A stretch of 64,000 nucleotides of DNA from a virus, in the IMG/VR virus record IMGVR_UViG_3300026290_000001; one strand, written 5' to 3'. Under the pieces are notes generated by a model. That model saw only the letters and a list, made by a program, of their open reading frames with translations, was not told the origin of the DNA and made no database searches. The number at the start of each line of letters is the position of its first letter. Within the stretch, counting starts at the first letter, position 1. Position numbers and translations under genes: made by a program. This document shows positions 29,727 through 51,212 of this stretch, piece after piece.

Positions 29727-29755
29727 TTGACAAGCATCTTGACACAGTGTAGTAT
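29727..29755 (+). promoter_or_regulatory. sigma-A-type promoter (TTGACA-17-TAGTAT)
   Basis: Direct reading inside the G+C-richer insert. Confidence 0.45.
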
Positions 29756-29834
29756 AAATACATACCCGTATGTCTATATCCGTACAACCAAGACGGGGGC
29801 TTATTTGGTGGGAATAAAATATTGAGGTGACATA

Positions 29835-31471: not shown

Positions 31472-31548
31472 AATACAAATCCCATTCTATAGGGATTTAA
31501 ATCGTGATAAAACAATCGTTTCATGTTGATTTAGAAAGGAGAAAATAT

Positions 31549-32130
31549 TTGAATAAATATTGGGAGCATTTTAAAACAATCACAAAACATAAATGGTATG
31601 TAATGAAAGCATGTTTTAAATCTAAATTATATTGGCAGGGAATAGTACATGATTTAAGTAAGTATTCAATTACCGAGTTCTTCACAAGTGCAAAATATTT
31701 CACAGGAAACAGTTCACCCATTGATGCTGAAAAAAATAAAAATGGTTACTCTTTAGCATGGCAAAATCATAAGGCAAACAATAAACATCATTGGCAATAT
31801 TGGACTGATTTTGAAAATGGAGATTTAATAGTTTTAAAAATGCCAGCCAAGTATTTAGCGGAAATGTTGTGTGATTGGGTGGGAGCAGGTAAGGCTTATA
31901 ATAAATCTATTTGGACTATTGATACATTTAAAGCATGGTATAAAAGCAATATAGATAAAATGATATTACACACAAGTACAAAGGCGTATATTAATTTACT
32001 TATAGAACATGTAATTAACGAACAAGACTTATATGATAATTGGATTAAAATATCAAGAATTAATGAAAATTATATGCTTGATGATTTAGAAGGTTGTTCA
32101 TATCAACCATCAATAAAACTATTAAAATAA
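31549..32130 (+). CDS. hypothetical protein, possible HD-domain phosphohydrolase
   Basis: H ... GIVHDLSKY spacing resembles the HD motif; track ORF 31504 trimmed to TTG after AAGGAG SD. Confidence 0.35.
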   Translation: MNKYWEHFKTITKHKWYVMKACFKSKLYWQGIVHDLSKYSITEFFTSAKYFTGNSSPIDAEKNKNGYSLAWQNHKANNKHHWQYWTDFENGDLIVLKMPAKYLAEMLCDWVGAGKAYNKSIWTIDTFKAWYKSNIDKMILHTSTKAYINLLIEHVINEQDLYDNWIKISRINENYMLDDLEGCSYQPSIKLLK

Positions 32131-32173
32131 AATCACAGATTGGTAATGAAATTTAGAAAGGAGTAGAAATACA

Positions 32174-33475
32174 ATATTAGAAGTAATTTATAAAACAGAA
32201 AAAGGTAGACTTGTTCATGGTGATAATATTGAAGCAATGAGAAAAATTAAAGAAAATTCAGTTGATAGTTGTATATCAGATTTTCCTTATGATTTATCAT
32301 TTATGGGTAAGAAATGGGATACTACAGGAAATTTTTATGAGTGGTGTAAAGATCGAGCAGAACCATTATATAGAATAATTAAGCCGGGAGGTTATGTTTG
32401 TATCTTTGGGCATCCTAAAACTAATCACAGAATGAAGTCAGCTTTTGAAGATGTAGGGTTTAATATAGTTGAAGAAATTGATTGGGTTTATGGAACTGGT
32501 TTTCCTAAGAATCAAGATATAGGAAAATTGTTTGATAAGAAAGCAGGAGCAGAAAGAGAAATTGTTGGATATTTAGATAGAAATGATAGAAAATTACCTA
32601 GTGGCGAAGGTGGTACTCATGGTACGGCACATCAAGATTATTGTAATAATGGTAGAGAAACTATAAATTTATCAATTACTGCACCAGCTACAAATCAAGC
32701 AAAGAAATGGGATGGATGGAAAACATCAGGATTAAAACCAGCACATGAACCAATTACTGTATTTCAAAAACCATTGGAAGGTACTTATATAAATAATATA
32801 AATACATATGGTGTTGGTGGAATGAATATTAATGCTTGTAGGATAGAACATAATGAACCTATTAAAACAACAAATAGAAAACCAAGAAGTGCTACATGGA
32901 ATATGGACACTTGTGGATTTGATAGCACAAACAATACTGTTGCTAGTGCTGATCCAAATGGCAGATTCCCTGCTAATATGATATTTGATTCTTCTATGGG
33001 AGAAGTATTAGATAATCAGAGTGGAATTAGTAAGTCAACGGGTGGAAGTGGAGATAAGAGCAAAGGTGCTTTAGGGGATAGTGTTTATGGAAAATATAAA
33101 AATGAAGAATTATCAGCTAATGCAGGAGGATTAGGAGATTCAAGTGGTGCTAGTAGATATTTCTTAAAGATAGATGCAGAAGATTTTGTACCATTTTTAT
33201 ATTGTCCTAAAGCATCTAAAAAAGAAAAAGGCGAAGGGAATACTCATGTAACTGTTAAACCTAAAGAATTAATAAAATGGCTCATTAAATTAGTTACACC
33301 TATAAATGGAAAAACAATTGATATTACTGCTGGTTCTGGTACACATGGTTTGGCTTGTGAAGAACTTAATAAGAATGAAGGTTATAATCTAAGATGGATT
33401 GATATTGAATTATTAAATACAGAGAAAGAACCTTATTGTGAAATTGCAATGAATAGAATTAAAAATGTAATATAA
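32174..33475 (+). CDS. DNA methyltransferase, beta-class, variant motif IV (DFPY), probable ATA start
   Basis: N-terminal GRLVHGDNIEAM ... SVDSCISDFPYD and C-terminal DITAGSGTHG; Gly/Ser-rich central insert; frame open upstream of track ATG 32237 with no canonical start after AAAGGAG. Confidence 0.55.
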   Translation: MLEVIYKTEKGRLVHGDNIEAMRKIKENSVDSCISDFPYDLSFMGKKWDTTGNFYEWCKDRAEPLYRIIKPGGYVCIFGHPKTNHRMKSAFEDVGFNIVEEIDWVYGTGFPKNQDIGKLFDKKAGAEREIVGYLDRNDRKLPSGEGGTHGTAHQDYCNNGRETINLSITAPATNQAKKWDGWKTSGLKPAHEPITVFQKPLEGTYINNINTYGVGGMNINACRIEHNEPIKTTNRKPRSATWNMDTCGFDSTNNTVASADPNGRFPANMIFDSSMGEVLDNQSGISKSTGGSGDKSKGALGDSVYGKYKNEELSANAGGLGDSSGASRYFLKIDAEDFVPFLYCPKASKKEKGEGNTHVTVKPKELIKWLIKLVTPINGKTIDITAGSGTHGLACEELNKNEGYNLRWIDIELLNTEKEPYCEIAMNRIKNVI

Positions 33476-33606
33476 AAATATACAGAAAAATACAAATATA
33501 CATACTATATATAGTGGCATTAAGCAATTCATACCACAATATATAGAAAAATATTTGAATAAAATTCGGGTTTTGTCACAAAATTATTAAATAGAAAGGA
33601 GAATAT

Positions 33607-33867
33607 ATGAAAAAAATAAAATATTACTGTGACAAATGTAATAAAGAAATCCAAAAGGAAGATATTATTAAAAAAGAAATACCTACTATAGATAAAATTG
33701 AAGCAAGAGGTGGTAAGGGTAATCCTACCCCTGTATTATTAGTATTTGAAAACTTAGTTATGGATGAATATGAGTTATGCAAAAATTGTGCAGATTCATA
33801 TGAAATATTACATAATTATTTCTTAACTTTACTTGCAAAACAATGGTCTAAAGTAAATACCAAATAA
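33607..33867 (+). CDS. small zinc-ribbon-like protein
   Basis: CDKCNKE ... CKNC. Confidence 0.45.
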   Translation: MKKIKYYCDKCNKEIQKEDIIKKEIPTIDKIEARGGKGNPTPVLLVFENLVMDEYELCKNCADSYEILHNYFLTLLAKQWSKVNTK

Positions 33868-33905
33868 TGCTTTCATAAAAACTAAAAAATAAGGAGAATA
33901 AATAT

Positions 33906-34340
33906 ATGAAAACTTTACTATTAATCTTAGGAATTATAATTCTAATTTCAAAGAAAAAGGCTATTCCAAATATTTTTAAATCTAAAGAAGTTAAGAGAAA
34001 AATGGCAGAAAAAATGTTTGATGAATTACCAGATAAGGCAAAGGAGTTACATATTGATCTTACCACATTAAAAGGCTTGTTAATTATATTTTTAGGTCTA
34101 TTTTGCTTGTTGTATATAATTTTTTATTTATTATCAGCAATATTTATTAATACCTTCGTATTCACTGTAATATCAATTCTATTAATGTTTCTTACAGTTA
34201 AAACTTTAAGTAATTTTCTAAAAGGTTTTGATAATACCGGAAATATAAAAGTAGAAAGTGTTGCATTTAGTATATTTAATATTATTGTTGATTTAGGATA
34301 CATAGGATATGTGTTTTTCAATATATATAAGATGTGGTAA
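33906..34340 (+). CDS. integral membrane protein
   Basis: Three to four long hydrophobic segments. Confidence 0.5.
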   Translation: MKTLLLILGIIILISKKKAIPNIFKSKEVKRKMAEKMFDELPDKAKELHIDLTTLKGLLIIFLGLFCLLYIIFYLLSAIFINTFVFTVISILLMFLTVKTLSNFLKGFDNTGNIKVESVAFSIFNIIVDLGYIGYVFFNIYKMW

Positions 34341-34387
34341 AACATCATAGAATAACGGTTTGGTGCAAAGTGAGGTGAAATTATTAA

Positions 34388-34552
34388 ATGACTTTTGGAT
34401 TTACTTATTTTATCTCTAAAAGGGATAAAAGCGCAGAAAGAATAATTAATATTGAAGCAGAGTCGGAAGAACAGGCATTTGATAAATACATAAAGTTTTT
34501 AAGTGAGCATCATATGGTTATGGGTGAATCACTTGGAGAAAAGTTAAAATAA
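34388..34552 (+). CDS. small hypothetical protein (54 aa), not in track
   Basis: ATG after GAGGTGAAA SD. Confidence 0.3.
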   Translation: MTFGFTYFISKRDKSAERIINIEAESEEQAFDKYIKFLSEHHMVMGESLGEKLK

Positions 34553-34607
34553 AAACAACACAAAAAATCAATTTGGTTCAAACTTTTACAAAAAACACAA
34601 TATAAAA

Positions 34608-35378
34608 ATGAAAGGAGAATTAGTATATAAGTTGCAATTATACTATAAAGATGAATACATAAGATTATTTCAAGGTGATTGTTTAGAAGTAATGGATAGG
34701 TTAATTGAGAAAGGTGTTAAATTTGATGCAATAATTACTGATCCTCCTTACGGGACTACAGCTTGTAAATGGGATAGTATCATACCATTTGATAGTATGT
34801 GGGAAAGATTAAATAAGTTAATAAAGGATAATAGTGCAATAGTTTTATTTGGTAGTGAACCATTTAGTAGTCATTTAAGAGTAAGTAATATTAAAAATTT
34901 TAAATATGATTGGATATGGAATAAAAAGAAGGGAGGAAGTCCTTTACTTTCTAAAATACAACCAATAAAAATATTTGAAATTATATCTGTTTTTGGGAAA
35001 GGGAAAATAAATTATTATCCAGTAATGGTTGATAGAGATAAACCTAAATCAAGGGGTAAGAATAGAGGAACTATTAGTGATACAACAAATAATTGTTTTT
35101 CAGAAGATAAGATTTATACGCAATATTATCCTAAAGCAATTATAGAATTTTCAAATGCTAGTCAAAAAAATAAATTTCACCCAACTCAAAAACCAGTGGA
35201 GCTAATGGAATATCTTATTAACACATATACACAAGAGAATGAAATTATATTAGATTTTACTTGCGGTTCTGGTACAACATTATTAGCATCAAGAAATCTT
35301 AAAAGAAAATGTATCGGTATTGAATTGGAAGAAAAATATTGTGAAATAACTAAACAAAGATTAGAAAAAGCAAGTTAA
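34608..35378 (+). CDS. DNA methyltransferase, beta-class (DPPY)
   Basis: ITDPPYGT and FHPTQKP ... DFTCGSGTT; true start may be in-frame TTG near 34632 because AAAGGAG lies just after the track ATG. Confidence 0.7.
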   Translation: MKGELVYKLQLYYKDEYIRLFQGDCLEVMDRLIEKGVKFDAIITDPPYGTTACKWDSIIPFDSMWERLNKLIKDNSAIVLFGSEPFSSHLRVSNIKNFKYDWIWNKKKGGSPLLSKIQPIKIFEIISVFGKGKINYYPVMVDRDKPKSRGKNRGTISDTTNNCFSEDKIYTQYYPKAIIEFSNASQKNKFHPTQKPVELMEYLINTYTQENEIILDFTCGSGTTLLASRNLKRKCIGIELEEKYCEITKQRLEKAS

Positions 35379-35505
35379 ATATAAAAACAGCATAAAATTC
35401 TAGTTTGGTTCAAAAATAGACGCCTAAAGATTGGGATTCTTAGAGTATGGATTTTTCAAAATAATTATTAAAATAAAAATATAAATATTGGAGGTAAATA
35501 TATAA

Positions 35506-36345
35506 TTGATAGAATTAAATAATTTTTATATAGGGGAATCTGTTAATTTTATGCGTAAAAATATTCCTGATAATTTTGTAGATTTAACAGTTACAAGTCC
35601 ACCTTATGATGATTTAAGAAAATATAATGGATTTATTTTTGATTATGAAACAATTTTTAAAGAACTTTTTAGAATAACTAAAAATGGTGGAATTGTTGTA
35701 TGGATAATAGGAGATAAGACAGAAAAAGGAACGGAAAGTCTAACAAGTTTTAAACATGCTTTAAGTGCTAAAAATATAGGATTTAATGTTCATGATACAA
35801 TGATATGGTTAAAACCTAATCCAACACCAACTGATCCTAAATGTTTAAGATATTATAATGCTTTTGAATACATGTTCGTTTTTTCTAAAGGAAAACCAAA
35901 AACATGTAATTATATAAAAGAAAAATCTAAAAATACAGGTAAAGAATTTGGTTCAGCTCCAATGAAAAGAGTAGATGGAACTAACAGAGATGACAGAACT
36001 GAAAAGTTAAAGGGTATAAAAATAAAAGACTATAAAATTAAAAGTAATGTATGGGAATGTGCTATAGGTTCAGGGGTATCTAAAGATAAAATTGCTTTTA
36101 AACATCCAGCAATTTTCCCTGAAAAATTAGTTGAAGATCACATAATTTCTTGGACTAATAAAAATGATATTGTACTAGACCCTATGTGTGGTTCGGGTAC
36201 AACGTGCAAAATGGCATGGTTAAACAAGCGTAATTTTATTGGAATTGATATGAGTGAAGAATACATAAATAACATTTGTATACCAAGATTAAATACATAT
36301 GGTTGGGAACAGAATAAAGAAAACGTATTTCAAGATTGCCTATAA
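35506..36345 (+). CDS. DNA methyltransferase, beta-class, SPPY type (paralog group)
   Basis: TSPPYDD and DPMCGSGTT; TTG start; high nucleotide similarity to 40520-41323. Confidence 0.7.
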   Translation: MIELNNFYIGESVNFMRKNIPDNFVDLTVTSPPYDDLRKYNGFIFDYETIFKELFRITKNGGIVVWIIGDKTEKGTESLTSFKHALSAKNIGFNVHDTMIWLKPNPTPTDPKCLRYYNAFEYMFVFSKGKPKTCNYIKEKSKNTGKEFGSAPMKRVDGTNRDDRTEKLKGIKIKDYKIKSNVWECAIGSGVSKDKIAFKHPAIFPEKLVEDHIISWTNKNDIVLDPMCGSGTTCKMAWLNKRNFIGIDMSEEYINNICIPRLNTYGWEQNKENVFQDCL

Positions 36346-36419
36346 ATTGGGCTTTATAATCTATAAAATCATTACCAAATTTGAGTTTGGTTCAAAGTTA
36401 TAGAAAGGAGAAATTATAA

Positions 36420-37256
36420 ATTATCAATACATATTATAAAAATAAATATGCAAGGATATATCAATGTGACAATTTAGAATTATTAAAACAATTACCAAAT
36501 GAATACATAGATTTAATTTATTGTGATATTTTATACAACACTGGTAAGAAATTTAAGGATTATGATGATCAATTAGGCACAACACAAGAAGCAATTAAAT
36601 GGTATAAACCAAGATTAATAGAAATGAAAAGAGTATTAAAGGAAACAGGATCAATTTATTTACATATGGATTTTAGATTAATACATTATTTAAAAGTAAA
36701 AATGGATGAAATATTTCAATTAAATAATTTTAGAAATGAGATTATATGGGATAAAGGATTTAGGGGTACGGAGCAAAAAGAGTTTTATCAACATTCGCAT
36801 GATTCAATATTATTTTATACAAAAACTAATAACTACATATGGAATAAAGTTTTTTGTGAATATGCTGATAAAAATATGAGTAGGTATAATAAAACTGATG
36901 AAGATGGAAATAAATATGCTTTAATTAAAAGAAAAAGAACAGACGGAAGTGTTTATTATGGCAAAACATATCCACAATCAGAAGGAAAGAAAGCAGACGA
37001 TGTATTTAGAGATATAAAAACTTTTTCATCAACAGCTAAAGAAAGAATTGGTTATGATACTCAAAAACCAAAGGCATTATTAGAACGTATTATTAAAGCA
37101 TCTTCTAATGAAGGAGATATAGTAGCAGACTTCTTTATGGGATCAGGCACTACTGGCGAAGTGGCATTAGAATTAGGTCGTAAATTTATTGGTTGTGATA
37201 TTGGGGAAAGGGCATGTGAGATTACTAAAAATAGATTAGATAAAATTATAATATAA
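36420..37256 (+). CDS. methyltransferase-like protein with degenerate motif IV (DILY) and no canonical start; possible pseudogene
   Basis: [27 protein letters not shown] plus C-terminal YDTQKP ... DFFMGSGTT; only ATT/ATC codons follow AAAGGAG before track ATG 36624. Confidence 0.45.
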
Positions 37257-37308
37257 AAACATGACAAAAACTATGTTTTATTTAGATTTTAAAAGAAAGG
37301 AGAAACAT

Positions 37309-37614
37309 ATGAAATTTATTAAAGATATTTCTAATATTATAATATTGCAAAATGATCATTGTAAATTTGAAATCAGAAGTGTACAAGGATTTAATGAAGA
37401 TGAAAATAAAATAATCTTAAAATGTGCCGAAGATATATCAGAGTTTAAAAAAGGTTATGTTTGTGATATGGAATGTCATTTTCCATTAGTTGAAAATGAT
37501 GGAGTTGAAGTTGGTGAAAGAATTGATACGATTCGAGACTTGGTATTGGTTTATATCAATAAAGATATTCAAATGGAATATGCCCCTAGTTTTGAATATG
37601 TATTTTATAAATAA
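37309..37614 (+). CDS. hypothetical protein
   Basis: Track ORF 37261 trimmed to ATG after AAAGGAGAAA SD. Confidence 0.4.
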   Translation: MKFIKDISNIIILQNDHCKFEIRSVQGFNEDENKIILKCAEDISEFKKGYVCDMECHFPLVENDGVEVGERIDTIRDLVLVYINKDIQMEYAPSFEYVFYK

Positions 37615-37659
37615 TAAAACAAAATTTCGATTTTATAACGATTTTAAAAGGAGGATATT

Positions 37660-37890
37660 ATGTTTAAAAAAATTAAAGTTAGAGAATTTTTAGAAGAAGT
37701 TTGCGGAGCAAAAGTTGATTGGATTTCTGGTAATGTAATTAAAGTAAATGAACATTATATTTATTTAGATAAAAAGAAATTTATTTTAAATTATGATTGG
37801 CATTTTTATGGAACAAAAAGAGATATATTAAAAACACTAAAAGAATATGGGTTTGTGATTAAAAAGAAATTACAGTTAAATTATTATTAG
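37660..37890 (+). CDS. hypothetical protein
   Basis: Track ORF with AAGGAGGA SD. Confidence 0.45.
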   Translation: MFKKIKVREFLEEVCGAKVDWISGNVIKVNEHYIYLDKKKFILNYDWHFYGTKRDILKTLKEYGFVIKKKLQLNYY

Positions 37891-38165
37891 AAACGAAAGG
37901 AGAAATATGCATACTGAACTAACAGAGGATCAACTTAAACTAATAAAAAAGTATGGGGAAATTAATCCACCACATCATACTATTGAAGAAATTGAAGAAG
38001 CATTGAAAAAATCATCTGAAATTAAAATAAAATTACAAGAAAAATAAATATCGTGATAAAATCTCTATTTGGTGCAGAAATGGATGGCTATATATTGGGA
38101 TTTGTGGGGCTATAAATTTTGAAAATAAAAACAAAAAATAAAGATAGGAGGTAAATATATAAAAT

Positions 38166-39158
38166 TTGCTTGAATTGAATAAAATATATAATGAAGATTG
38201 TATAATCGGCATGAAAAAATTATTAAAAGATGGTTACAAAAATACTTTTGATTTTATAGAAATTGATCCACCTTATAATATAGGCAAAGATAAATGGGAT
38301 AAATTTAAAAACCATCAAACATATTTAAATTTTATTAATGAAGTTATAAGTTTATCTAATGAATTAATGAGCGATAATGGAACCTTATTTTTATGGCATA
38401 ATAATATCGAGGTGTTATCAGATTTTATTAAATTAATTAATACTACAGATTTAAAATTAATGCAATTATGTATATGGAATAAATATTATAAATATAATGA
38501 TGACGGTAATTTGAATAATCAATACGGATTTTTAAATGGATTTATTCAAAGTGATTTAAATAGGAATTATCAAAAAATGTGCGAATATATTTTATATTAC
38601 ACTAAACAAAACGAAGAATTAACTGAATATAATGAAAAAGACCCATTTAAATCACTAAAGGAATATTTTTTTAATGCCCAAAAATCTTCTGGTTTATCAA
38701 GAAATAAAATTAATCAAATATTGGGGCATAGACAATCTGAGCATACTTTTTATACTAAAACTCAATGGACTTTTCCAACAGAAGAAACATATTTAGAATT
38801 ACAAAATATAATGAATCTACCTATCCCTTATAATGATTTAAAAAATACATATGAAACAATGAGATATACATATAATTCAGAGAAAAACAATTATCGAAGT
38901 TGTATTTGGAATTACCCGATAAGTAAAGAATCAAAACACAAGACAGAGAAACCGTTACAATTGTATTATGATTTATATGAAATACATACAAAAAATAATA
39001 GTAAATGTTTATTCCCGTTTGTGGGTAGTGGTAATAATATTTTAAGTTTATTTAAAATAAATAATTTTGATGGAGGGAAACGAGAGTTTGTAGGTTTTGA
39101 AACTGACAAAACATGGTTTACTTATATAAATGAAAAAATAGATTTAAGAATCCCGTAA
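38166..39158 (+). CDS. DNA methyltransferase, beta-class (DPPY)
   Basis: IEIDPPYN and C-terminal FPFVGSGNN; TTG start; 3' end overlaps a GAATCCC/GGGATTC hairpin. Confidence 0.65.
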   Translation: MLELNKIYNEDCIIGMKKLLKDGYKNTFDFIEIDPPYNIGKDKWDKFKNHQTYLNFINEVISLSNELMSDNGTLFLWHNNIEVLSDFIKLINTTDLKLMQLCIWNKYYKYNDDGNLNNQYGFLNGFIQSDLNRNYQKMCEYILYYTKQNEELTEYNEKDPFKSLKEYFFNAQKSSGLSRNKINQILGHRQSEHTFYTKTQWTFPTEETYLELQNIMNLPIPYNDLKNTYETMRYTYNSEKNNYRSCIWNYPISKESKHKTEKPLQLYYDLYEIHTKNNSKCLFPFVGSGNNILSLFKINNFDGGKREFVGFETDKTWFTYINEKIDLRIP

Positions 39159-39232
39159 TATTGGGATTCTTAAACCCAAAAATCAACACCAAACTTCGGT
39201 TTGGTTCAAAGTTATAGGAAGGAGAAAATAAT

Positions 39233-39427
39233 ATGTTTGATTGTAGATTCGCTAAAAGTATTCTATTGGATAAAAATGAAGATGATACTTATCATATGAC
39301 AATAAAAGGAGATATTTATAATCTTGATCCTGAAGCGGAAATTGATTTTTCTAGAGTGAAAATTATTAATTTTGATATTGAGGCATTAGCAACAACTGGG
39401 ACAATATGTAAAATAAAAATAATATAA
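39233..39427 (+). CDS. hypothetical protein
   Basis: Track ORF with AAGGAGAAA SD. Confidence 0.4.
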   Translation: MFDCRFAKSILLDKNEDDTYHMTIKGDIYNLDPEAEIDFSRVKIINFDIEALATTGTICKIKII

Positions 39428-39521
39428 AATTTTTGTTTGGTTAAGAAATTTATAATTATTATAGGGATTGATTTTACCATAATTTTAATATATAATAAAA
39501 ATAAAAACGGAGGTTTTATAT

Positions 39522-39692: not shown

Positions 39693-39720
39693 AAATTAAT
39701 ATTAATAAAGGAGTTATAGT

Positions 39721-40461: not shown

Positions 40462-40519
40462 TAATATAAAAACAATATAAATATTTGGTTTGGTCATGAA
40501 ATATGAAAGGAGATTATAT

Positions 40520-41323: not shown

Positions 41324-41428
41324 AATAAAAATCCCAATTTCTAGGGATTTACAAAACTCAAAAACATGATCAAAACTTCGTTTTGTTACATCAATAAAAC
41401 AATAAAATAAATTAAGGAGGGAAATAAA

Positions 41429-41884
41429 ATAGCGGATTTTGATAACAATAGATTTGCTTCAAAAAATCAAGAGTACGCAACACCTTGGGAATTATTTAAT
41501 AAGATAAATGAAGAATTTAATTTTACCTTAGATGTGTGTGCAGATGAAAATAATCATAAAGTTGATACATATTTTACGGAAGAACAAAATGCTCTTATCC
41601 AAAATTGGAAAGGAGTATGTTGGATGAATCCACCTTATAAGGATATGAAAAAATGGGTTATAAAAGCATACGAAGAATCAGTTAAAAATGATAGTATTGT
41701 GGTTTGTTTAATTCCAGCAAGAACTAATACCAAATGGTGGCATGAGTATTGCATGAAAGGTGAAATAAGATTTATTAAAGGTAGACCAAAATTTGAAGGA
41801 TGTATTCATGGTTTACCACAACCATTAGCAATTGTTGTTTTTGGAAAAGAATATAAAAATACATATGGTTCATTAGCAATTTAG
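41429..41884 (+). CDS. phage-type Dam N6-adenine methyltransferase (PF05869-like), probable ATA start
   Basis: YATPWELF ... FTLDVCADENNHK ... WKGVCWMNPPYKD; conserved region begins at ATA 7 nt after AAGGAGGG; track starts at internal GTG 41534. Confidence 0.6.
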   Translation: MADFDNNRFASKNQEYATPWELFNKINEEFNFTLDVCADENNHKVDTYFTEEQNALIQNWKGVCWMNPPYKDMKKWVIKAYEESVKNDSIVVCLIPARTNTKWWHEYCMKGEIRFIKGRPKFEGCIHGLPQPLAIVVFGKEYKNTYGSLAI

Positions 41885-42014
41885 TAAAAATATCAAGCAA
41901 ACAATGATATATAGGCATTTTCAACTTATCACAAATGCCTATATATTGGGCTTTTACAAAAATCATTACCAAAATATCATTTTATATTAATTAGAAAGGA
42001 GAAACAAAATATAA

Positions 42015-42584: not shown

Positions 42585-42667
42585 AATAAAAATTATCATA
42601 AAAGTCTGAATTGGTTTAGAGTTAATAAAAATGAAAAATAAAAATAGGGAGGTATCTAATACATAAA

Positions 42668-43438: not shown

Positions 43439-43665
43439 AAAATAAAAATCATGATAAAATAAGTGTTTTATCATAATATTGCAGAAATCAGTATTTTGGT
43501 AGGTTATCAACAAATACACACAACAAAGCCCTAAATGGTGGGAATGAAAAGGTATTTTAAGTGGATTAACTCTACCAAAGTAAAAAATATTTGAACCAAA
43601 TGCGTCTTTTATTCAAAGTTTATTAAAAACATAAAATAAATATAAAGAAAAGAGGATTATATATA

Positions 43666-44370: not shown

Positions 44371-44434
44371 ATATTTACTTTCTTTATAGTATGGTGTATA
44401 ATAAATATATCATATCTATATAGGAGGTTAAATT

Positions 44435-44644
44435 ATGAAAACATATAAAACTGAATCAGGAGAAGAATGGTTATATTTTGATGAATGGTTAGTAGAAAAC
44501 AGTTATTATAAATGGAAAAAACAATATGATATTTTAGCAAGTACGGGGACAGATGAAGAAGAAATAGATAGGATTAAAGACGATTTATTAAAACAATTCT
44601 ATGATTTTTGTGAAGAATATGGGTATGTTGGTCAGGAAGTATAA
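44435..44644 (+). CDS. hypothetical protein
   Basis: Track ORF with TAGGAGGT SD. Confidence 0.45.
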   Translation: MKTYKTESGEEWLYFDEWLVENSYYKWKKQYDILASTGTDEEEIDRIKDDLLKQFYDFCEEYGYVGQEV

Positions 44645-44764
44645 TTTATAATTTTTGTGTTTTACGAACCCCTAAATAATGGGGTTTGTGAAACCAAAAA
44701 TCATGATAAAACTCATCTTTTGTGTTGATATTAAAATTTAAATATAAGGAGGTAATATTATTAA

Positions 44765-45517
44765 TTGTTTGAATTAAATAAAATATATTGTGTTGATTGT
44801 TTAGAAGGGATTAAAAATATAGAAAGTGGCAGTATTGATATGGTATTTTTTGATCCTCCTTTCAATTTAAACAAAGATTATGGAATTAAAATTAATGATA
44901 ATTTAATAAAAGAAAAATATTTAAACTGGCAGTATGAAATATTAAAAGAATCTATTAGAGTGCTATGTGATAATGGGGCAATAATTTATCATACTATCCC
45001 AAAATGGGCATTTAAAATAGCTAATTATCTTGATGAACAAGGAATGGTTTTTCAAAATTGGATTTGTTGGAATGAATCAGGATCAACACCTACCCCTTCA
45101 AGATTATATCCTAAACATTATCCTATTCTTTGGTTTTCTAAGAATAAACTCAAAACTTTTAATAAACAATATATTCCCATAGAAAGATGCAGAAAGTGCA
45201 ATACTACTATAAAAGATTATGGTGGCAAATTTAAAGATTTAAAAGAAATAGATGGTGAAAAAGTAACTGTTTTAAGTGATGTATGGGACGATATACATAG
45301 AATAAGACATAATAAAAATAAAAATAGAAAATCAAATGAACTTCCCGAAATTTTAATGGAAAGAATAATTAACTTATATTCTAAAGAAAATGATATAATT
45401 TTAGACCCATTTTCAGGTAGTGGGACAACATGTAAAATAGCAAAGAAACTAAATAGACAATATATTGGATTTGAAATTAATCCTGAATACATAAAAATCT
45501 CAAAAGAACGTATTTAA
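44765..45517 (+). CDS. DNA methyltransferase, beta-class (DPPF)
   Basis: VFFDPPFN and DPFSGSGTT; TTG start. Confidence 0.7.
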   Translation: MFELNKIYCVDCLEGIKNIESGSIDMVFFDPPFNLNKDYGIKINDNLIKEKYLNWQYEILKESIRVLCDNGAIIYHTIPKWAFKIANYLDEQGMVFQNWICWNESGSTPTPSRLYPKHYPILWFSKNKLKTFNKQYIPIERCRKCNTTIKDYGGKFKDLKEIDGEKVTVLSDVWDDIHRIRHNKNKNRKSNELPEILMERIINLYSKENDIILDPFSGSGTTCKIAKKLNRQYIGFEINPEYIKISKERI

Positions 45518-45544
45518 AACAACAAAATAATATTATTGACGTTG

Positions 45545-45573
45545 TTGACTTTGTTTGTGAAAATTGATATAAT
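45545..45573 (+). promoter_or_regulatory. sigma-A-type promoter (TTGACT-17-TGaTATAAT)
   Basis: Direct reading, extended -10. Confidence 0.5.
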
Positions 45574-45598
45574 TAATAAAAATGTAGGAGGTATATTT

Positions 45599-45859
45599 AT
45601 GGCAGTACGCAGACAAAGGGCAACAACTAGTGCAGAAATAATGGATAAAGATATTAAAATAGTAATTAAAAAATCAAAAGTTCGCTATAGAAGTGTAGAA
45701 TCAAAATCTCATGGTTTTGTTAATGAATTTTGGATTGAAAAAATTGATGATTTATTTTTTTCAGGAGGTAAAATAAGTGAAGAAAGAATTTATCAACATT
45801 GGAAATTCAACTTTGATAAAAATAAGTGGGAGTGTATAGAAGACAAATCTAAAAATTAA
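45599..45859 (+). CDS. hypothetical protein
   Basis: Track ORF 45536 trimmed to ATG after TAGGAGGT SD. Confidence 0.4.
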   Translation: MAVRRQRATTSAEIMDKDIKIVIKKSKVRYRSVESKSHGFVNEFWIEKIDDLFFSGGKISEERIYQHWKFNFDKNKWECIEDKSKN

Positions 45860-45972
45860 TTTAATAAGAAAAATACAAATCCCATTATATCGGACTTCAT
45901 TTTTATAAAAATCATGATAAAACTTGTCTTTTGTCATGATATTAAAACAAAAATAAATATGGAGGTTAAAAT

Positions 45973-47394
45973 ATAATTAAATTAAATAAGTTTGCATTAG
46001 TACAATTAACTCCAAAAGATATGCGAAGCCAAGATAGTATAAATTTAGGATTAGAAATTATATCTGAAATAGTTAAAAAACAAGGTTGGCAATTAGATAC
46101 ATATAAATTCGGAGATAAAATTCAAGATGTTAATTCATATGATATTATAGGGTTTAGTTTATTCTATTTTACACAAATGTTAAATTTAGTTCCATTCCTA
46201 AAGAGTAATAATATTAAACCATTAAGTAGTAAAAGAAACAATCAACCACTATTATTAGCTGGCGGTCAAGGTATTCAAAATCCTAAACCAATTAGTAAAT
46301 TTATTGATGTATTTTGTATGGGTGAGGGTGAGGGGGTTTTGGAATATATCTTAGAAAATTATAAAAATAAAAATATTTTATCAAACCATAAGTCTTTGTA
46401 TATACCAAATATAAATGATAATTTTATATTCAACTCAATAAAAGATGTTGATTCTAAACCTATAATTTATGGTAAAAATAGCATGATAGAATTAACGAGG
46501 GGATGTAAAAATAGATGTAAGTTTTGTCAGTATGGATGGACAAATGGTAAATATCGAGAAAAAAACATCGAACTAGTAAAACAACAAATATTAGAGGTTA
46601 AAGATAAAGGCATTAAAAATATTAACTTGTTAAGTTGTAATTTGGGTGGTTATTCTAAGATAAATGAAGTTCTTGATTTTTGTATAGAAGAAAATATTAG
46701 ATTAATGAATACCGATATGAGAATTGACGAATATAGTGAAGAAATAGCTATAAAATTAGACCTACTAAAAGTGAGAACTCTAAAAGTTGGAGTAGAAAGC
46801 TTTTCTGATCAAACACGAATTGGTATTAATAAGAATATTTCAAAAATACAATTAGATACTTTTATTGACAGAGCTTTGAAGCATAATATATCAAATTTAC
46901 ATTTTTATTTAATATACGGACTTCCAAACGAAGAAAACTATAATGAATGGTTTAATTATATGGAATACATAAAAAATAGAATAAAATCTGTTGATAGAAA
47001 TATAAGAATTGAATTTAGTATTACTAATTTTGAACCAGCAATATATACACCCTTTGAAAAAAGTCCTTTAATTAATTTCCAAGACAAGCATAAATTTATG
47101 AGAGAATATTTAATAAAACAAGAAGAATTGGGTTATATAAAACAACCCGCACAAACAAAAGATTATAAAAATAGTCATGGAAGATTAGGCAGAAAAGAAC
47201 GAAGTTATAATATTGGAATGTGGTTACTACATGGGGACGAAACTGTAGGGGATGTGTTATATGAATTAAACATTAAAGGAATAGGTAGGAGTATAAATGA
47301 AAAGATTTATAATCAAATTTATAAAATATGCCAATCAAAAACTGATGTTTATCAAATAAGAAACATTCAAGATTTAAATGAAAATATATGGTGA
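45973..47394 (+). CDS. radical SAM protein with N-terminal B12-binding-like domain, probable ATA start
   Basis: TRGCKNRCKFCQYGW (CxxxCxxC); N-terminal FALVQLTP ... LGLEIISEIVKKQGW fits the cobalamin-binding-domain pattern; track ATG 46021 has no SD, ATA lies 7 nt after GGAGGTT. Confidence 0.55.
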   Translation: MIKLNKFALVQLTPKDMRSQDSINLGLEIISEIVKKQGWQLDTYKFGDKIQDVNSYDIIGFSLFYFTQMLNLVPFLKSNNIKPLSSKRNNQPLLLAGGQGIQNPKPISKFIDVFCMGEGEGVLEYILENYKNKNILSNHKSLYIPNINDNFIFNSIKDVDSKPIIYGKNSMIELTRGCKNRCKFCQYGWTNGKYREKNIELVKQQILEVKDKGIKNINLLSCNLGGYSKINEVLDFCIEENIRLMNTDMRIDEYSEEIAIKLDLLKVRTLKVGVESFSDQTRIGINKNISKIQLDTFIDRALKHNISNLHFYLIYGLPNEENYNEWFNYMEYIKNRIKSVDRNIRIEFSITNFEPAIYTPFEKSPLINFQDKHKFMREYLIKQEELGYIKQPAQTKDYKNSHGRLGRKERSYNIGMWLLHGDETVGDVLYELNIKGIGRSINEKIYNQIYKICQSKTDVYQIRNIQDLNENIW

Positions 47395-47470
47395 TGTCCA
47401 TGCCTATAAATTGGGATTCTCAACACTCAAAAACATGATAAAACTAGTTTTTGGTCATGAAATTAAATGC

Positions 47471-47499
47471 TTGACAAATATTAATTAAAATAGTAATAT
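47471..47499 (+). promoter_or_regulatory. sigma-A-type promoter (TTGACA-17-TAATAT)
   Basis: Direct reading. Confidence 0.5.
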
Positions 47500-47525
47500 A
47501 AAGATACTGCGAAGGGAGGAAGGTT

Positions 47526-49397
47526 ATGAGTGAAATAGAAAATCTCAAACAACAATTAGATTACCATGATGATTTGTATTACAATCAAGACGATCCTGAA
47601 TTATCTGATGTGGAATATGATGCTTTAAAACAAGAATATCTTAATTCAGTTAATCAACAAGAATACAACTATATACCTGGGCAAGCACAATTTAAAAAAT
47701 TCACACACACATTCCCTATTAAATCATTGGGGAAAATAAATACTATTGAACAAGCAAGAAAAGAAATTGAAAGGTTATATCCAGTAGTTATTGAACCTAA
47801 ATATGATGGATTAACCTTAGTGTTATATGGTGAAGGGAAAGTAGTAACTAGAGGTAGTGGTCAAATCGGAGAAGATGTTACTGCAAATGCTTCTAGATTT
47901 ATGCGTACTTATAATCCATATGGTTTACCTATTCGTGGCGAAGCAATTATGCCTATATCAGTGTTCCATGAAATTAACAAACAAAGGGATGTAGAAGGTA
48001 AGGAATTATTTAAAAATCCAAGAAATGCAATAGCAGGTATTCTTAGAAATAAAGATAATAGTAATATCCCTAAAGGGTTAAGATTTATTGCTTATGAAAT
48101 CGTAGGATCAGCAGAATCCCATATTCAACAATTATTAGAACTTAAAAAATACTATGATATACCTGAAGCAGATACTATTTGGAATTATAGTGAAATTGAT
48201 GATGCAGTAAAATTCATAGAAAACTTTGATCGTTCTAAATTAGATTATGAAATTGATGGATTAGTTATTAAATCTAATAAGACAAATGCATTAGATATTT
48301 TTGGTGAAACTGAACATCATCCGAACCATAGTGTTGCCTACAAGTTTCCTTCTCAGGGAGAATGGACTGTATTAAAATCTATAACTTGGCAAACTGGTCG
48401 CACGGGCAGAATTACCCCTGTGGCAGAATTGGAACCAGTAGATATTATGGGAAGTACAATCGAACGTGCTACATTGCATAATATAGGGTATATTAGTGGT
48501 TTAGATTTACAGCTATATGATAAGGTGTTTTTAGTGAAAAGTAATGATATTATTCCCGCTGTGATTAAATGTGAGCATACTAAAAATAGTAAACCTATTG
48601 AAATTATAAACAAGTGTCCTTCATGTGGAAGTGAATTAAAAATTATCAATGATCAATTATTCTGTATTAATGATGATTGTTTGGCAAAATTATTATATAG
48701 AACTTCTCATATGGTTAGTCGAGATGCCCTTAATATAGATGGTCTTAGTGAGCAAACCATTTTAAAAATGATTGAAGCAGGATATATTAATAAACCTTGG
48801 GATATATTTGATGTTACTGAAACAGAAATATTAAAATTAGATGGTTTTGCAAAGAAATCTGCCAAAAAAATATATGAAAATATTCAAAATGCAAGAAATT
48901 GTGATTTTGATAGAGCAATTTACGCTTGTGGAATTGAACTGATAGGCAGAAAGGTTAGTAAAGATATTGCAAAAGAATTTGAGACTATTGATAATTTGTT
49001 ATATTGTTTAAGACGTGATGATGCTAGAAGTATATTAGGTATGATTGATGGTATTGGTAATACCACTATAGATAGTTTATTGAATAACGTTAATATTTTA
49101 GAAAATATGGTGGATTATTTAAGTATTAGTAGTGTTGAAAAGAAAGAAACAACTTTTAAATCTCTTGAAAATATTACATTTGTAGTTACCGGAAATGTAG
49201 AAACATTTAAAAACCGTAAAGAGTTAGAAGAATTGATCACTTCTCTTGGTGGTAAGTTAAGTGGATCAGTTTCAAGTAAAACTAATTATTTAATCAACAA
49301 CGATATTACCTCCAATTCTGGTAAGAATAAAAAGGCAAACGAATTAGGGGTAGAAATTATTAGTGAAATACGATTTAATGAAATGATAGGTAGGTAA
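47526..49397 (+). CDS. ligA: NAD-dependent DNA ligase
   Basis: N-terminal LDYHDDLYYNQDDPELSDVEYDALKQEY, adenylylation motif EPKYDGL, Cys4 zinc finger CPSCGSEL...CINDDC, C-terminal BRCT-like VVTGNVETF. Confidence 0.85.
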   Translation: MSEIENLKQQLDYHDDLYYNQDDPELSDVEYDALKQEYLNSVNQQEYNYIPGQAQFKKFTHTFPIKSLGKINTIEQARKEIERLYPVVIEPKYDGLTLVLYGEGKVVTRGSGQIGEDVTANASRFMRTYNPYGLPIRGEAIMPISVFHEINKQRDVEGKELFKNPRNAIAGILRNKDNSNIPKGLRFIAYEIVGSAESHIQQLLELKKYYDIPEADTIWNYSEIDDAVKFIENFDRSKLDYEIDGLVIKSNKTNALDIFGETEHHPNHSVAYKFPSQGEWTVLKSITWQTGRTGRITPVAELEPVDIMGSTIERATLHNIGYISGLDLQLYDKVFLVKSNDIIPAVIKCEHTKNSKPIEIINKCPSCGSELKIINDQLFCINDDCLAKLLYRTSHMVSRDALNIDGLSEQTILKMIEAGYINKPWDIFDVTETEILKLDGFAKKSAKKIYENIQNARNCDFDRAIYACGIELIGRKVSKDIAKEFETIDNLLYCLRRDDARSILGMIDGIGNTTIDSLLNNVNILENMVDYLSISSVEKKETTFKSLENITFVVTGNVETFKNRKELEELITSLGGKLSGSVSSKTNYLINNDITSNSGKNKKANELGVEIISEIRFNEMIGR

Positions 49398-49400
49398 AAT

Positions 49401-49640
49401 ATGAACGATAAAATCTATATTATACCTAGAGAAGATAAACCAATAAAATTCATTATTGAAGAATTACCATGTCCTATCTGTTCACAAATTGGATATGATT
49501 TTAGATGTGAACATGCCAAAAGTAGTTTTAAAGATTTAATATATACAATATCTTGTACTAATTTTAATCATTGTGAAAATGCAGAGAATATATCATTGAA
49601 ATTCAATGAGTTAATACAAGATGAGTTGTTAACCACTTGA
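49401..49640 (+). CDS. small zinc-finger-like protein
   Basis: CPICSQ ... CEH. Confidence 0.45.
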   Translation: MNDKIYIIPREDKPIKFIIEELPCPICSQIGYDFRCEHAKSSFKDLIYTISCTNFNHCENAENISLKFNELIQDELLTT

Positions 49641-49950
49641 CAGATTAGTAAAATAAATATATAATAAAATTACAACAAAATATCAAAAATATCAATTTTA
49701 CAAATCCCAATATATAGCCATTCTTGAAGGTGAAAATCAACACCAAATCTGCGTTTTGTCACAACTTTTATGAATGCTAATATACAGGGCTTGAGAATTG
49801 CTATTTTAAGCGAAAATACGGTAAAATCAATGGTTTTAAGTAATTACTAAAATTAGCTTTACATAAAGTCCAATATATAGGCGTTTATAATTCTAAAAAT
49901 CGTGACAAAAGTGTCATTTTGTTTAGAAATTATAGAAAGGGGAATTAAAT

Positions 49951-50136
49951 ATGGATAAAAATTTTTTATTGCTTTGTTCATATGAGAATATGGAAGGAAT
50001 GCTAGAAAGAGATTTTGAATGGTATCAAACAGAAGAAAACATGAGAGAAAGCATTGAAGATAAAAAAGAATTTATAAAAGATTTTACGGTCAATAAAGCA
50101 ATAGAAATATTACAAGTTAGAAATATAGAAATATAA
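49951..50136 (+). CDS. hypothetical protein
   Basis: Track ORF with AAAGGGGAA SD. Confidence 0.4.
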   Translation: MDKNFLLLCSYENMEGMLERDFEWYQTEENMRESIEDKKEFIKDFTVNKAIEILQVRNIEI

Positions 50137-50192
50137 TTTAAATAATAAACCTTAGTAATAAAAACATTAAAAGGAGATGAATTATACATAAT

Positions 50193-50951
50193 TTGATTGA
50201 ATTGAATAAAATTTATAATGAAGATTGTATAGGTGGAAGGGGTATGTGTTTAATCCCAAATGAATCAATCGATATGATTTTATGTGATCTTCCGTATGGA
50301 ACTACGATGGCGAAATGGGATAAGATTATCAACCAAGAAGAATTGTGGACGCAGTATAGAAGGATAATTAAACCCAGAGGGGCAATTGTACTAACTTCTA
50401 GTCAGCCATTTTCAAGTGCTTTAATATATAAAAACCTAGACATTTATAGGCATTCATGGGTTTGGGAAAAGAACAATTCTGCAGATTATGCCAATGCAAA
50501 TTGTAGACCAATGAAAATACATGAGGAAGTATTGGTATTTTCATTCGCACATGATGTTGCTCCTGCTAAAGTAAAGATGATTTATAATCCACAGGGGCTA
50601 ATACCAGTTAATAAGCCCAATCGGAGAGGTAGACATAGTGAAACAACAGGTCATTTTAGAGAGAATGAGTACATACAAAAATACACAAACTATCCTACTA
50701 CAATATTGAGGTTTGCTTCAGATAAAGATAAAATTCACTCTACACAAAAACCTGTGGCGTTGTTTGAATATCTTATAGAAACATATAGTAATGAAGGTGA
50801 TTTGGTTTTAGATAATTGTATAGGCTCAGGCACAACAGCGATTGCGTGTATAAACATCAAACGTAAATTTATAGGGTTTGAAAATGACAATACATATTTT
50901 GAGTTAGCAAACAAAAGAATAGAAGAACATAAATGTAAAATAAATATTTGA
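50193..50951 (+). CDS. DNA methyltransferase, beta-class, variant motif IV (DLPY)
   Basis: ILCDLPYGT and HSTQKP ... DNCIGSGTT; TTG start; 5' 40 nt near-identical to 38166 and 42668. Confidence 0.65.
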   Translation: MIELNKIYNEDCIGGRGMCLIPNESIDMILCDLPYGTTMAKWDKIINQEELWTQYRRIIKPRGAIVLTSSQPFSSALIYKNLDIYRHSWVWEKNNSADYANANCRPMKIHEEVLVFSFAHDVAPAKVKMIYNPQGLIPVNKPNRRGRHSETTGHFRENEYIQKYTNYPTTILRFASDKDKIHSTQKPVALFEYLIETYSNEGDLVLDNCIGSGTTAIACINIKRKFIGFENDNTYFELANKRIEEHKCKINI

Positions 50952-51212
50952 CATTTAACCACAAACAGTATATAATAAAATTACCAGCAATATGCATCAA
51001 AAATATTAAAAATTTGCTTTTTACAAATTCCATTATATAGGTATTTATCAATACCCACAAAGCCCGATATATTGGGATTTTTACAAAAACATTACCAAAA
51101 ACAAATTTGGTCATGATTTTAAATTTGTCTTATATAAATTCAATATATAAGAATTTATTTTAAAATAAATTGCTGAGTTGAAATACGAAAGAAAGGAGGA
51201 AATACATAAAGT

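Follow-up and report, generated by a model that had tools for sequence, protein, structure and literature searches.

Two-armed intergenic elements with the anatomy of a recombination site may separate gene cassettes in the accessory region of a tailed phage

We analysed a family of dyad-symmetric intergenic repeats in a 64,000-nucleotide (nt) stretch of viral DNA (IMG/VR record IMGVR_UViG_3300026290_000001; hereafter the window). The window is part of a ~135-kb phage, for which several metagenomes from anaerobic digesters and fermentations independently yielded contigs of 134.8-138.1 kb that start at different points. The principal repeat is a 36-bp element, H2, which at part of its sites is accompanied by a second palindrome, H1. 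We see about even chances that the accessory region of this phage (~26-51 kb, with weaker copies to the left) is a gene-cassette array whose units are separated by H2 as a dif-like recombination site. H2 is read as a dif-like core site because it has like arms around a 6-bp spacer and because homology between related phages breaks at the borders of this spacer. All sequences compared were metagenomic assemblies.

A structure-free weight matrix of 40 nt detected 34 H2 sites of at least 8 bits on the plus strand, compared with 0.2 in local shuffles, and all 34 are intergenic. The bare pattern AYMAAA-N6-TTTKRT-N3-RA gave 47 matches against 0.43 expected. Overall there are ~40 copies (41 window copies were used in folding and spacer counts). 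H2 consists of two inverted 15-bp arms (columns 1-15 and 22-36) around the spacer, with a half-site of approximately AAAWYRTNAYMAAA. Its information content is limited to columns 1-36 and is dyad-symmetric column by column: the conserved arm blocks A2, A4-T5-Y6 and A10-Y11-M12-A13-A14-A15 are mirrored exactly in the other arm, and the frequencies of mirrored conserved columns differ by no more than 0.05. The spacer is near-random in sequence, its length never varies, and no copy contains an insertion or deletion. The spacers of the 41 copies are all distinct, where an estimated ~0.3 shared pairs were expected by chance; a requirement for spacer homology is thereby not contradicted, but gains no positive support.

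Strong H2 copies extend from 27435 to 51120 and weaker ones begin at 3392. Among gaps of at least 40 nt, H2 is present in 11 of 44 at 1-26.2 kb, in 23 of 30 at 26.2-51.3 kb and in none of 5 at 51.3-64 kb, and it is almost absent over 9 kb beyond the window. A first-pass annotation had placed the repeats in a methyltransferase island at 31478-51150, which proved too narrow: besides the wider extent of H2, the genes for RNA ligase, DUF5662, PAPS-reductase, radical-SAM and DNA-ligase proteins and small open reading frames are likewise flanked by H1 and H2. Of 77 H2 sites in the phage and its relatives, 30 start no more than 8 nt from a stop codon (23 of them overlapping or abutting it) and 32 end 8-25 nt 5' of a start codon, so that H2 typically fills the space from the stop codon to the Shine-Dalgarno (SD) sequence.

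H2 was found in at least 10 related contigs (L007, L006, L042, L044, L050, L196/L147, L198, L202 and L247-L253), with 68-85% protein identity of DnaE, ligase or RtcB, and all 21 H2 sites of the newly found related contigs are intergenic. The genes between the elements are mostly unrelated; of the roughly 25 genes that precede the ligase in L042, only ~5 are homologous to a window gene. Both elements are essentially absent from 1.24 Mb of Clostridia genome fragments, from phages with a 55-60% identical DnaE and from Clostridium phage Amboise. Per control set at most one or two weak H2 sites and at most one H1 remained; the Clostridia DNA has one single H2 site, and Amboise, the closest isolate, carries neither H1 nor H2.

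Three contigs from different samples, L042 (assembled three times), L251 and L252, share blocks of 92-99.9% identity that are separated by unrelated DNA. Comparison of relatives at base resolution, a check that the first-pass annotation had proposed, placed eight homology breakpoints inside an H2, adjoining the 6-bp spacer. At junctions A (L042 7308 / L251 5674), C (9292 in L042 and L251) and D (L252 1350 versus L042 8398 / L251 8240), and at a degenerate H2 (L042 ~3485 / L251 ~1459), the spacer, right arm and downstream gene are shared, while the left arm and upstream DNA differ. Junction E, at 47429 of the window, has the same form: compared with L042, L251 and L252 and with L247, spacer, right arm and downstream gene are common next to three different left arms, and homology begins at about column 13 of the H2 at 47429-47464. 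The mirror-image arrangement, in which upstream DNA, left arm and spacer are shared and the right arm and downstream DNA differ, was found at junctions B (L042 9150 / L251 8992), F (L042 4597 / L251 2571) and G (L050 13043 / L196 2666).

The 6-nt spacer is inherited intact with one arm at all eight junctions, always in register, which leaves hybrid sites. In this small sample the breakpoints map to columns 12-16 or 21-25, with the exact position blurred by the invariant AAA/TTT. A 767-bp block that is 99.87% identical in L042 and L252 begins at column 10 in an H2 and stops at column 24 in the following H2; bounded by two H2 centres, it corresponds to a single-gene cassette. Nine genome pairs gave 32 internal block ends, 8 of them in H2. 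H2 accounts for 2.1% of the sequence and 11.7% of the intergenic DNA; block starts in H2 all lie at columns 4-13 and block ends in H2 all at column 24. Assembly chimeras are an unlikely source of these junctions, because the identity shared there is far shorter than typical assembly k-mers. The earlier idea of a cassette array is supported in that the same H1/H2 punctuation surrounds mostly unrelated genes in relatives and that junctions lie at H2, but the array is not restricted to methyltransferases.

Simple tyrosine recombinases such as Cre, Flp and Xer cut two strands at the two borders of an overlap region. Homology of recombinants should therefore end at one or the other border with the overlap shared, as seen here, and we infer that exchange at H2 is site-specific rather than driven by homology or microhomology. 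Ordinary homologous or microhomology recombination at conserved boundaries, with no dedicated enzyme and with H2 kept for another (regulatory) reason, would follow the precedent of the PeSLs of T4-like phages (PMC2839356, PMC4122927), and we consider it quite unlikely. The phage carries recombination genes for an AAA_24 (Sak4-like) protein and RecJ, some of the other breakpoints are located within paralogous methyltransferase genes, and the columns in which the junctions appear to lie (10-15 and 22-24) are those of the invariant AAA/TTT and AYMAAA blocks, the best microhomology on offer. Homology-driven exchange fits poorly, however, with a certain junction identity of only 3-6 bp next to strongly different non-homologous arms, with the register and the intact spacer of all eight events, and with the fact that none of the eight falls in an outer arm or in the flanks.

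H1 is a palindrome of 26-28 bp with a TATA centre, present at 20-23 sites compared with ~1 expected, all of them intergenic or overlapping a stop codon. Its core, ATGCCTATATATTGGGAT, is slightly asymmetric, and both orientations are about equally frequent although all genes point one way. Of 32 pairs at 11 loci, 21 have the centres of H1 and H2 38 bp apart, 7 have a distance of 28 bp and 3 one of 33 bp. This phasing holds on either side of H2, the composite module exists in both orientations, and the 38- and 28-bp spacings are one helical turn apart. The contigs L042, L251 and L247-L253 have the window-type H1 with the same 38/28-bp phasing. In L044, L050 and L007 perfect inverted repeats of 11-19 bp (core CTAYATATAG) are found instead, 1-4 nt before H2. 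We infer that H1 most probably binds an accessory or architectural factor.

Repeat finding detected whole modules of 88-90 nt that are common to unrelated gene contexts at 70-76% identity. These modules, the two orientations of the H1-H2 composite and the extragenic position of elements with a palindromic consensus would suit selfish miniature palindromic elements (REP- or MITE-like) that have spread into intergenic DNA. We regard such an origin as very unlikely: protein family scans of the window detected neither a transposase nor a RAYT family, the elements showed no target-site duplications, and the position of H2 is closely tied to stop codon and SD. Invariant columns stand next to random ones, which argues for function and not decay, and 36 bp is far below the size of a MITE.

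The first-pass annotation had distinguished four motif families, (a) to (d), in a fixed order. The repeats do carry the sequences given for them at every coordinate listed, a repeat search recovered the families, and motifs (c), our H2, and (a), our H1, are enriched far above chance and shuffles. The four families nevertheless reduce to these two dyad-symmetric elements. Motif (b), TTTTACAAAAA, has 3 exact copies and, with one mismatch allowed, 21 matches against 19.6 expected, which is chance; it marks where the flank of an H1 meets the A-run of H2. Motif (d), TTTGGTTCAAAGTTATAG, corresponds to the right arm of the H2 variant ACACCAAAC-TTCG-GTTTGGTTCAAAG. The order is variable as well, with H1 before H2 in 16 pairs and after it in 6, and many H2 copies have no H1.

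The repeats had also been described as hairpins and, as one candidate role, weak terminators had been proposed. That H1 and H2 are hairpins of RNA or single-stranded DNA, acting as weak intrinsic terminators, mRNA stabilisers or RNase III-type processing sites, is in our view extremely improbable and was rejected on the absence of covariation together with the folding and terminator scans. Both consensuses are palindromic, many H2 copies end with a T-run, the perfect inverted repeats before H2 in L044, L050 and L007 could form hairpins, and a few copies fold well, the best being the H2 at 45908 (-11.6 kcal/mol). Against this, arm pairing in 99 H2 copies from the phage and its relatives is 65.5%, compared with 66.7 +/- 0.8% when partners are shuffled, and 477 of 500 shuffles gave a value at least as high. 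Covariation was likewise absent from a covariance model and from pair counts, made on 16, 79 and 99 H2 copies. At two variable inner positions the combinations occur at chance frequency, including the C-A and A-G ones (T-G 24, C-A 19, T-A 19, C-G 17; and A-T 22, A-G 16, C-T 15, C-G 10). The consensus stem, with at least 8 consensus pairs, folds in 11 of the 41 window copies; the mean folding energy is -3.4 kcal/mol with a mean z of -0.85, and several top-scoring copies do not fold at all.

H1 likewise shows no covariation (60% arm pairing versus 67% in shuffles; 21 copies), and its asymmetric core occurs in both orientations although the genes lie on one strand. In a lenient terminator scan of the gene strand only 2-3 H1 copies passed, and few T-tracts follow H1. 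Neither element has the G+C-rich stem with compensatory changes and the U-tract of an intrinsic terminator, H2 lacks the ~20-bp double-stranded RNA stem of RNase III intercistronic sites (T7, SP82), and searches for Rfam families and tRNAs gave no match to the elements. H1 and H2 are thus inverted repeats only at consensus level, and the lack of covariation, the weak folding and the missing Rfam and tRNA matches identify them as sequence motifs read on double-stranded DNA. Reassortment of arms by exchange would explain why the two arms of an H2 do not covary.

If H2 is a dif-like site, its left arm would belong to the upstream gene, often together with the stop codon of that gene, and its right arm to the downstream gene. 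Recombination between H2 sites of related phages, in register beside the spacer, would then swap whole cassettes and create hybrid sites. The most likely agent would be the phage's own Xer-family tyrosine recombinase of 292 amino acids (aa), working as a single-recombinase system on symmetric arms, and H1, centred 38 or 28 bp from the H2 centre, would serve an accessory or architectural factor in either orientation.

The opposite strand carries the gene of this recombinase 3.3-4.2 kb upstream of window position 1. The protein has the Pfam domains Phage_int_SAM_4, Phage_int_SAM_1 and Phage_integrase, and a weak match to MrpR_C_cat. Its best NCBIfam models are of the XerA type (193 bits), XerD (184) and XerC (181), all matched over the full length and below the respective cut-off, and the closest solved structures are XerA and XerD. 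All catalytic residues are aligned: R in GLRISE, K in GKGSKQR, HxxR in HSLRH, H in LGHGS and Y in TQIYLH. In the L042 phage, likewise a carrier of H2, a 52% identical homologue is encoded at the same divergent position; the L267 homologue has 85% identity. For relatives with a 53% identical recombinase, the co-occurrence of H2 was read from 10-kb flanks, and searching viral contigs for the recombinase with a peptide pattern gave no hit. A fuller version of the proposal is a self-encoded cassette system resembling integrons or dif modules, in which the single Xer-like recombinase excises and inserts single-gene circles at the ~40 H2 sites, with pairing of spacers and H1 as accessory site, and reshuffles an anti-restriction repertoire of >15 orphan DNA methyltransferases together with other accessory genes. 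We put this version forward tentatively, as a possibility.

Several observations weigh against a dif-like cassette array served by this enzyme. The 15-bp arms of H2 are longer than the 11 bp of classical dif, no H2 lies within 2 kb of the recombinase gene, and no dif-like site was seen beside it. In the relatives with a 53% identical recombinase, the gene adjoins FtsK-like and actin-like partition genes, and the enzyme, a predicted partner of H2, may mainly resolve multimers of a plasmid-like prophage or catalyse integration at a single site elsewhere. Genes or other intergenic DNA hold about half of the block ends. The breakpoints are few, five of the eight events coming from one trio of genomes, and the invariant AAA/TTT beside the spacer limits resolution and could equally be microhomology. 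Finally, ~15 strain-level copies of the phage show no cassette polymorphism and have an identical order, so exchange is not frequent.

In the surroundings of the recombinase gene we observed further features. A perfect palindrome of the H1 core (AATGCCTATA/TATAGGCATT) lies at L263 9011-9030, in a 1.5-kb non-coding gap beside the recombinase gene of the L042 phage, and an H1-like site is also present at L260 8126. A non-coding G/T-rich stretch of ~400 nt (L260 7400-7780), 2.0-2.4 kb upstream of the window between a leftward and a rightward gene block, might represent an origin, a packaging site or the end of the genome. More distant relatives have actin-like (ALP_N) and FtsK/SpoIIIE genes beside the recombinase (L274 5945-8315), and the gene neighbourhoods in relatives hint at a plasmid-like prophage state. 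Some relatives encode a protein of ~860-890 aa with a weak RdRP (PF05183) match (L263 16334-18913, L276 17028-19712), possibly a YonO-like single-subunit RNA polymerase; YonJ-like and CoiA-like genes accompany it, as in SPbeta.

Other identities of the H2 sequence were considered and rejected. A sigma-A or phage-sigma promoter within H2 is incompatible with the conserved columns, whose arrangement does not suit -35 and -10 boxes (TATAAT would require -11A at column 23, an invariant T), and many copies abut the SD. H2 also fits none of the CodY, Fur/Zur, Rex, ComK and Spo0A boxes of host regulators, and the 1.24 Mb of Clostridia DNA, with its single H2, gives a host regulator site no support. 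Sigma-A promoter-like sites were not enriched in a promoter scan, and only few modules have a separate promoter beside them. A few H2 copies are located 0-8 nt upstream of promoter-like TTGACA-N17-TATAAT sites.

A shared operator, one of the roles that the first-pass annotation had considered, is a possible rival or additional function. H2 would then be a repeated operator at which a dimeric protein (a phage repressor or temporal regulator, and possibly the recombinase-fold protein of the phage itself) silences or times accessory transcription by roadblock at every junction, with the breakpoints as a by-product. Such an operator agrees with the dyad symmetry, the fixed spacing and the absence of a pairing constraint, with the limitation of H2 to one genome region (23 of 30 gaps) and its place between stop codon and SD, where there is no room for a promoter, with the promoter-like sites that follow some copies and with the helical phasing of H1. 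Precedents are the L5-type stoperators (PMC9283540) and SPBRE, which is bound by the recombinase-fold repressor MrpR (PMC10516654), and the weak MrpR_C_cat match of the recombinase points in the same direction. The recombinase retains every catalytic residue, however, which MrpR does not, and no helix-turn-helix, sigma or repressor family was detected among the 116 window proteins. An operator alone would also leave unexplained why exchange occurs at spacer edges with unrelated arms on one side. We regard it as unlikely, and the operator and recombination-site roles could coexist.

The elements are distributed along the window as follows. Weaker H2 copies of the left part are exemplified by 11663-11698; others start at 3392, 6532, 12112, 17511, 19020, 21551, 24357 and 24552. 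A module of H2 followed by H1 was mapped at 5726-5795 by matrix scans and spacing (H2 5726-5761, H1 5768-5795; centres 38 bp apart), and one of H1 followed by a weak H2 at 23249-23308 (H1 23249-23276, H2 23273-23308; 28 bp). A lone H2 at 26246-26281 has a promoter-like TTGACA-N17-TAATAT site directly after it. H2 precedes H1 at 27435-27504 (H2 27435-27470, H1 27477-27504), where the stop codon of the RNA ligase gene lies in the first H2 bases, and at 28560-28629 (H2 28560-28595, H1 28602-28629). The order is reversed at 31474-31533 (H1 31474-31501, H2 31498-31533; centres 28 bp apart). Weak H2 copies follow at 33550-33585 and 34338-34373, the second filling the gap from stop codon to SD, and the right arm of the H2 at 34551-34586 is the former motif (d) at 34575.

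Further to the right, H2 then H1 occur at 35383-35442 (H2 35383-35418, H1 35415-35442) and 38047-38106 (H2 38047-38082, H1 38079-38106), both with centres 28 bp apart. H1 then H2 occur at 36331-36400 (H1 36331-36358, H2 36365-36400), with the stop codon of a methyltransferase gene inside H1, and at 39145-39214 (H1 39145-39172, H2 39179-39214), again with a stop codon inside H1. Lone copies of H2 fill the stop-to-SD gap at 37255-37290 and 37610-37645, the latter with a predicted folding energy of ~0. An H2 lies at 39415-39450, and lone copies at 40468-40503, between two methyltransferase genes, and at 42589-42624. The module at 41326-41395 has H1 (41326-41353) before H2 (41360-41395). At 41907-41994 an inverted pair of H1 cores with perfect 14-bp arms (41907-41946) is combined with H1 (41930-41957) and H2 (41959-41994), the centres being 33 bp apart, and 43445-43621 contains an H2 (43445-43480), a weak H1-like core (43522-43549) and a weak H2 (43586-43621).

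In the remaining part, an H1 variant, AACCCC..GGGGTT, precedes H2 at 44663-44732 (H1 44663-44690, H2 44697-44732). The H1-H2 module at 45874-45943 (H1 45874-45901, H2 45908-45943) has the most perfect H2 palindrome, and the one at 47395-47464 (H1 47395-47422, H2 47429-47464), the site of junction E, is followed by a promoter-like TTGACA-N17-TAATAT site. H2 is framed by two H1 copies at 49699-49796 (H1 49699-49726, H2 49733-49768, H1 49769-49796), and a further H1-H2 module spans 49862-49931 (H1 49862-49889, H2 49896-49931). The last module before the conserved replication genes, 51022-51120, has two H1 copies (51022-51049 and 51056-51083) before H2 (51085-51120); the orthologous place is occupied in L007 and L050 and has a promoter-like site instead in L006.

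The window has a G+C content of 27% and a coding share of 81%, and all genes lie on the plus strand, each with a strong GGAGG-type ribosome-binding site. The left part encodes many small proteins and then a beta clamp, RtcB and RNA ligase. In the middle there are ~16 DNA methyltransferase genes or fragments (N6_N4_Mtase, D12, Dam, MT-A70), interspersed with DUF5662, PAPS-reductase, radical-SAM and NAD-ligase genes. The right part is a replication block with DnaB-like helicase, RecJ, a LAGLIDADG endonuclease and a DnaE-type polymerase; the homing-endonuclease gene, at 58893-59732, lies between the RecJ-like and the DnaE polymerase gene. Pfam and PHROGs profile scans covered 116 window proteins and revealed no regulator or recombinase within the window, and a 352-aa protein at 51531 had no relative in the PDB. 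No near relative was found among deposited phages, the best being Amboise with a 48% identical DnaE. A Clostridium-type host is predicted from RtcB, which has 70% identity to Clostridium proteins.

TTG, preceded by a good SD, seems to be the start codon of many methyltransferase genes and of the PAPS-reductase gene (27777, 35506, 38166, 39721, 40490, 42015, 42668, 43666, 44765 and 50193). Several of these have a common N-terminus (LIELNKIYNEDC) and an upstream leader conserved at the DNA level, which suggests paralogue expansion and possibly low translation initiation. Seemingly truncated methyltransferase frames at 27777-28349, 30776-31471, 36624-37256 and 41534-41884 cover part of the family profile (for example Dam 34-123 of 169, phrog_799 198-370 of 458) and possibly represent split cassettes or cassettes in decay. 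On the opposite strand, 7.5-9.8 kb upstream of window position 1 (L260/L261 1-2264), there is a second cluster of methyltransferase genes. It differs between two otherwise 99.98% identical strains of the phage, the single strain-level difference detected, with the breakpoint inside a methyltransferase gene and not at H2; this cluster contains no H2 site.

The left and middle thirds of the window differ in their intergenic punctuation, since a family of strong early-type promoters, with an extended -35 TATTGACARYATGA and then a TATAAT-like box, occurs only at 2-15 kb (4720, 5842, 7437, 8826 and 12206; near-copies at 2355 and 15296). The heptamer ATAACAG has 43 copies in the window against 14.4 expected, 41 of them on the plus strand and all in the left 24 kb (1-24000; for example 129, 178, 600, 1202, 2380, 3437, 6533 and 17539). 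It sits in hairpin loops, just 5' of SDs and within genes, and has no copy in the H2-rich region. Direct repeats of 87 nt at 101-187 and 572-658 are 72% identical, each with a nested hairpin that has ATAACAG in its loop, and are flanked by AATTAATACC...GGGTATTA. Long, unusually G+C-rich non-coding stretches at 19313-19513 and 29535-29834, each 3' of a strong TTGACA-type promoter, had no Rfam match and could be leaders or small RNAs.

Whether phage mosaicism results from illegitimate recombination, from homologous recombination or from recombination at special boundaries is a long-standing question. Here a boundary sequence has the anatomy of a recombinase site, exchange points lie at its centre and a candidate enzyme is encoded by the phage, so that a direct test needs no more than a single protein and a 36-bp oligonucleotide. 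Site-specific cassette exchange in a tailed phage, if confirmed, would be a counterpart of integrons and plasmid dif modules and would explain how large anti-restriction methyltransferase arsenals are assembled.

Our literature search, which was incomplete, found no description of such an H2-bounded cassette arrangement, but H2 shares features with several known systems. From REP and MITE elements it differs in the absence of a pairing constraint and of a transposase family in the window. Like the stoperators of cluster A mycobacteriophages and SPBRE, where one protein-binding motif has 10 to >20 copies in short intergenic spaces (PMC9283540, PMC10516654), H2 is present in many copies in short intergenic spaces. 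Stoperators, however, are asymmetric 13-bp sites whose orientation follows transcription (PMC9283540), whereas H2 is symmetric and 36 bp long and the H1-H2 module is found in either orientation. The ligand of a stoperator is an immunity repressor with helix-turn-helix and stoperator domains; among the window proteins no helix-turn-helix family was detected. The SPBRE motif measures 15 bp and occupies ~10 promoter regions, and MrpR is a recombinase-fold protein that has lost its catalytic residues (PMC10516654); H2 is set apart from this system by description, being 36 bp long and mostly located where no promoter fits, and the phage recombinase is catalytically intact by alignment.

T4-like phages carry ~50 PeSLs per genome, composite intergenic motifs between stop codon and SD in hyperplastic regions, next to variable genes and at the boundaries of insertions and deletions (PMC2839356, PMC4122927). 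H2 is similarly concentrated in a hyperplastic region, flanks variable genes and marks differences between relatives. A PeSL combines a sigma-70 promoter with a GC-rich terminator hairpin and is exchanged by homologous recombination; H1 and H2, in contrast, have no sigma-A promoter and no conserved hairpin, and their breakpoints lie at spacer edges.

Integron cassettes are promoterless single genes in one orientation with an imperfect palindromic site at or after the stop codon and one defined exchange point. The accessory region of our phage resembles them in its single genes of one orientation, the position of H2 at or just after the stop codon and an apparently defined exchange point. An attC site, however, is 57-141 bp long, is conserved as a folded single-strand structure and is recombined by IntI near attI and the Pc promoter, whereas the 36-bp H2 is conserved in sequence and has no pairing constraint.

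A Xer/dif core site has inverted arms of ~11-13 bp around a fixed centre of 6-8 bp. H2 has this form with somewhat longer arms, and the R-K-H-R-H/W-Y signature expected of a cognate tyrosine recombinase is found by alignment in the 292-aa protein. Among single-recombinase Xer sites, XerA dif is built as 11+6+11, and the arms of difH and difSL end in GAAAA beside the central region; examples of arms ending in (G)AAAA are AGTTATGAAAA and TTTCCGAAAA (PMC5357621). Archaeal XerA dif, Helicobacter difH and streptococcal difSL thus share with H2 the imperfect inverted arms around a short centre (6-11 bp there). These systems use one recombinase of ~290-360 aa, and the best matches of the phage protein are XerA, XerD and XerC. 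They differ in having one site per replicon, usually beside the recombinase gene, that resolves dimers, whereas the phage has ~40 H2 sites with 15-bp arms and none beside the gene.

In the pdif modules of Acinetobacter plasmids, accessory genes lie between 28-bp two-armed sites with variable 6-bp spacers, and hybrid sites occur (PMC13141974, PMC6449649). H2 likewise separates cassettes, its spacer differs from site to site, relatives differ in their modules and apparent hybrid sites are found. The pdif sites are 28 bp long with two different arms for XerC and XerD, the modules alternate in orientation, and the system is plasmid-borne and uses host enzymes; H2 is 36 bp long with like arms, its cassettes all point in one direction, and it is accompanied by a phased H1 in a tailed phage with a single Xer-like gene of its own. 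The arrangement is best classed with gene modules bounded by recombination sites, here in a tailed phage.

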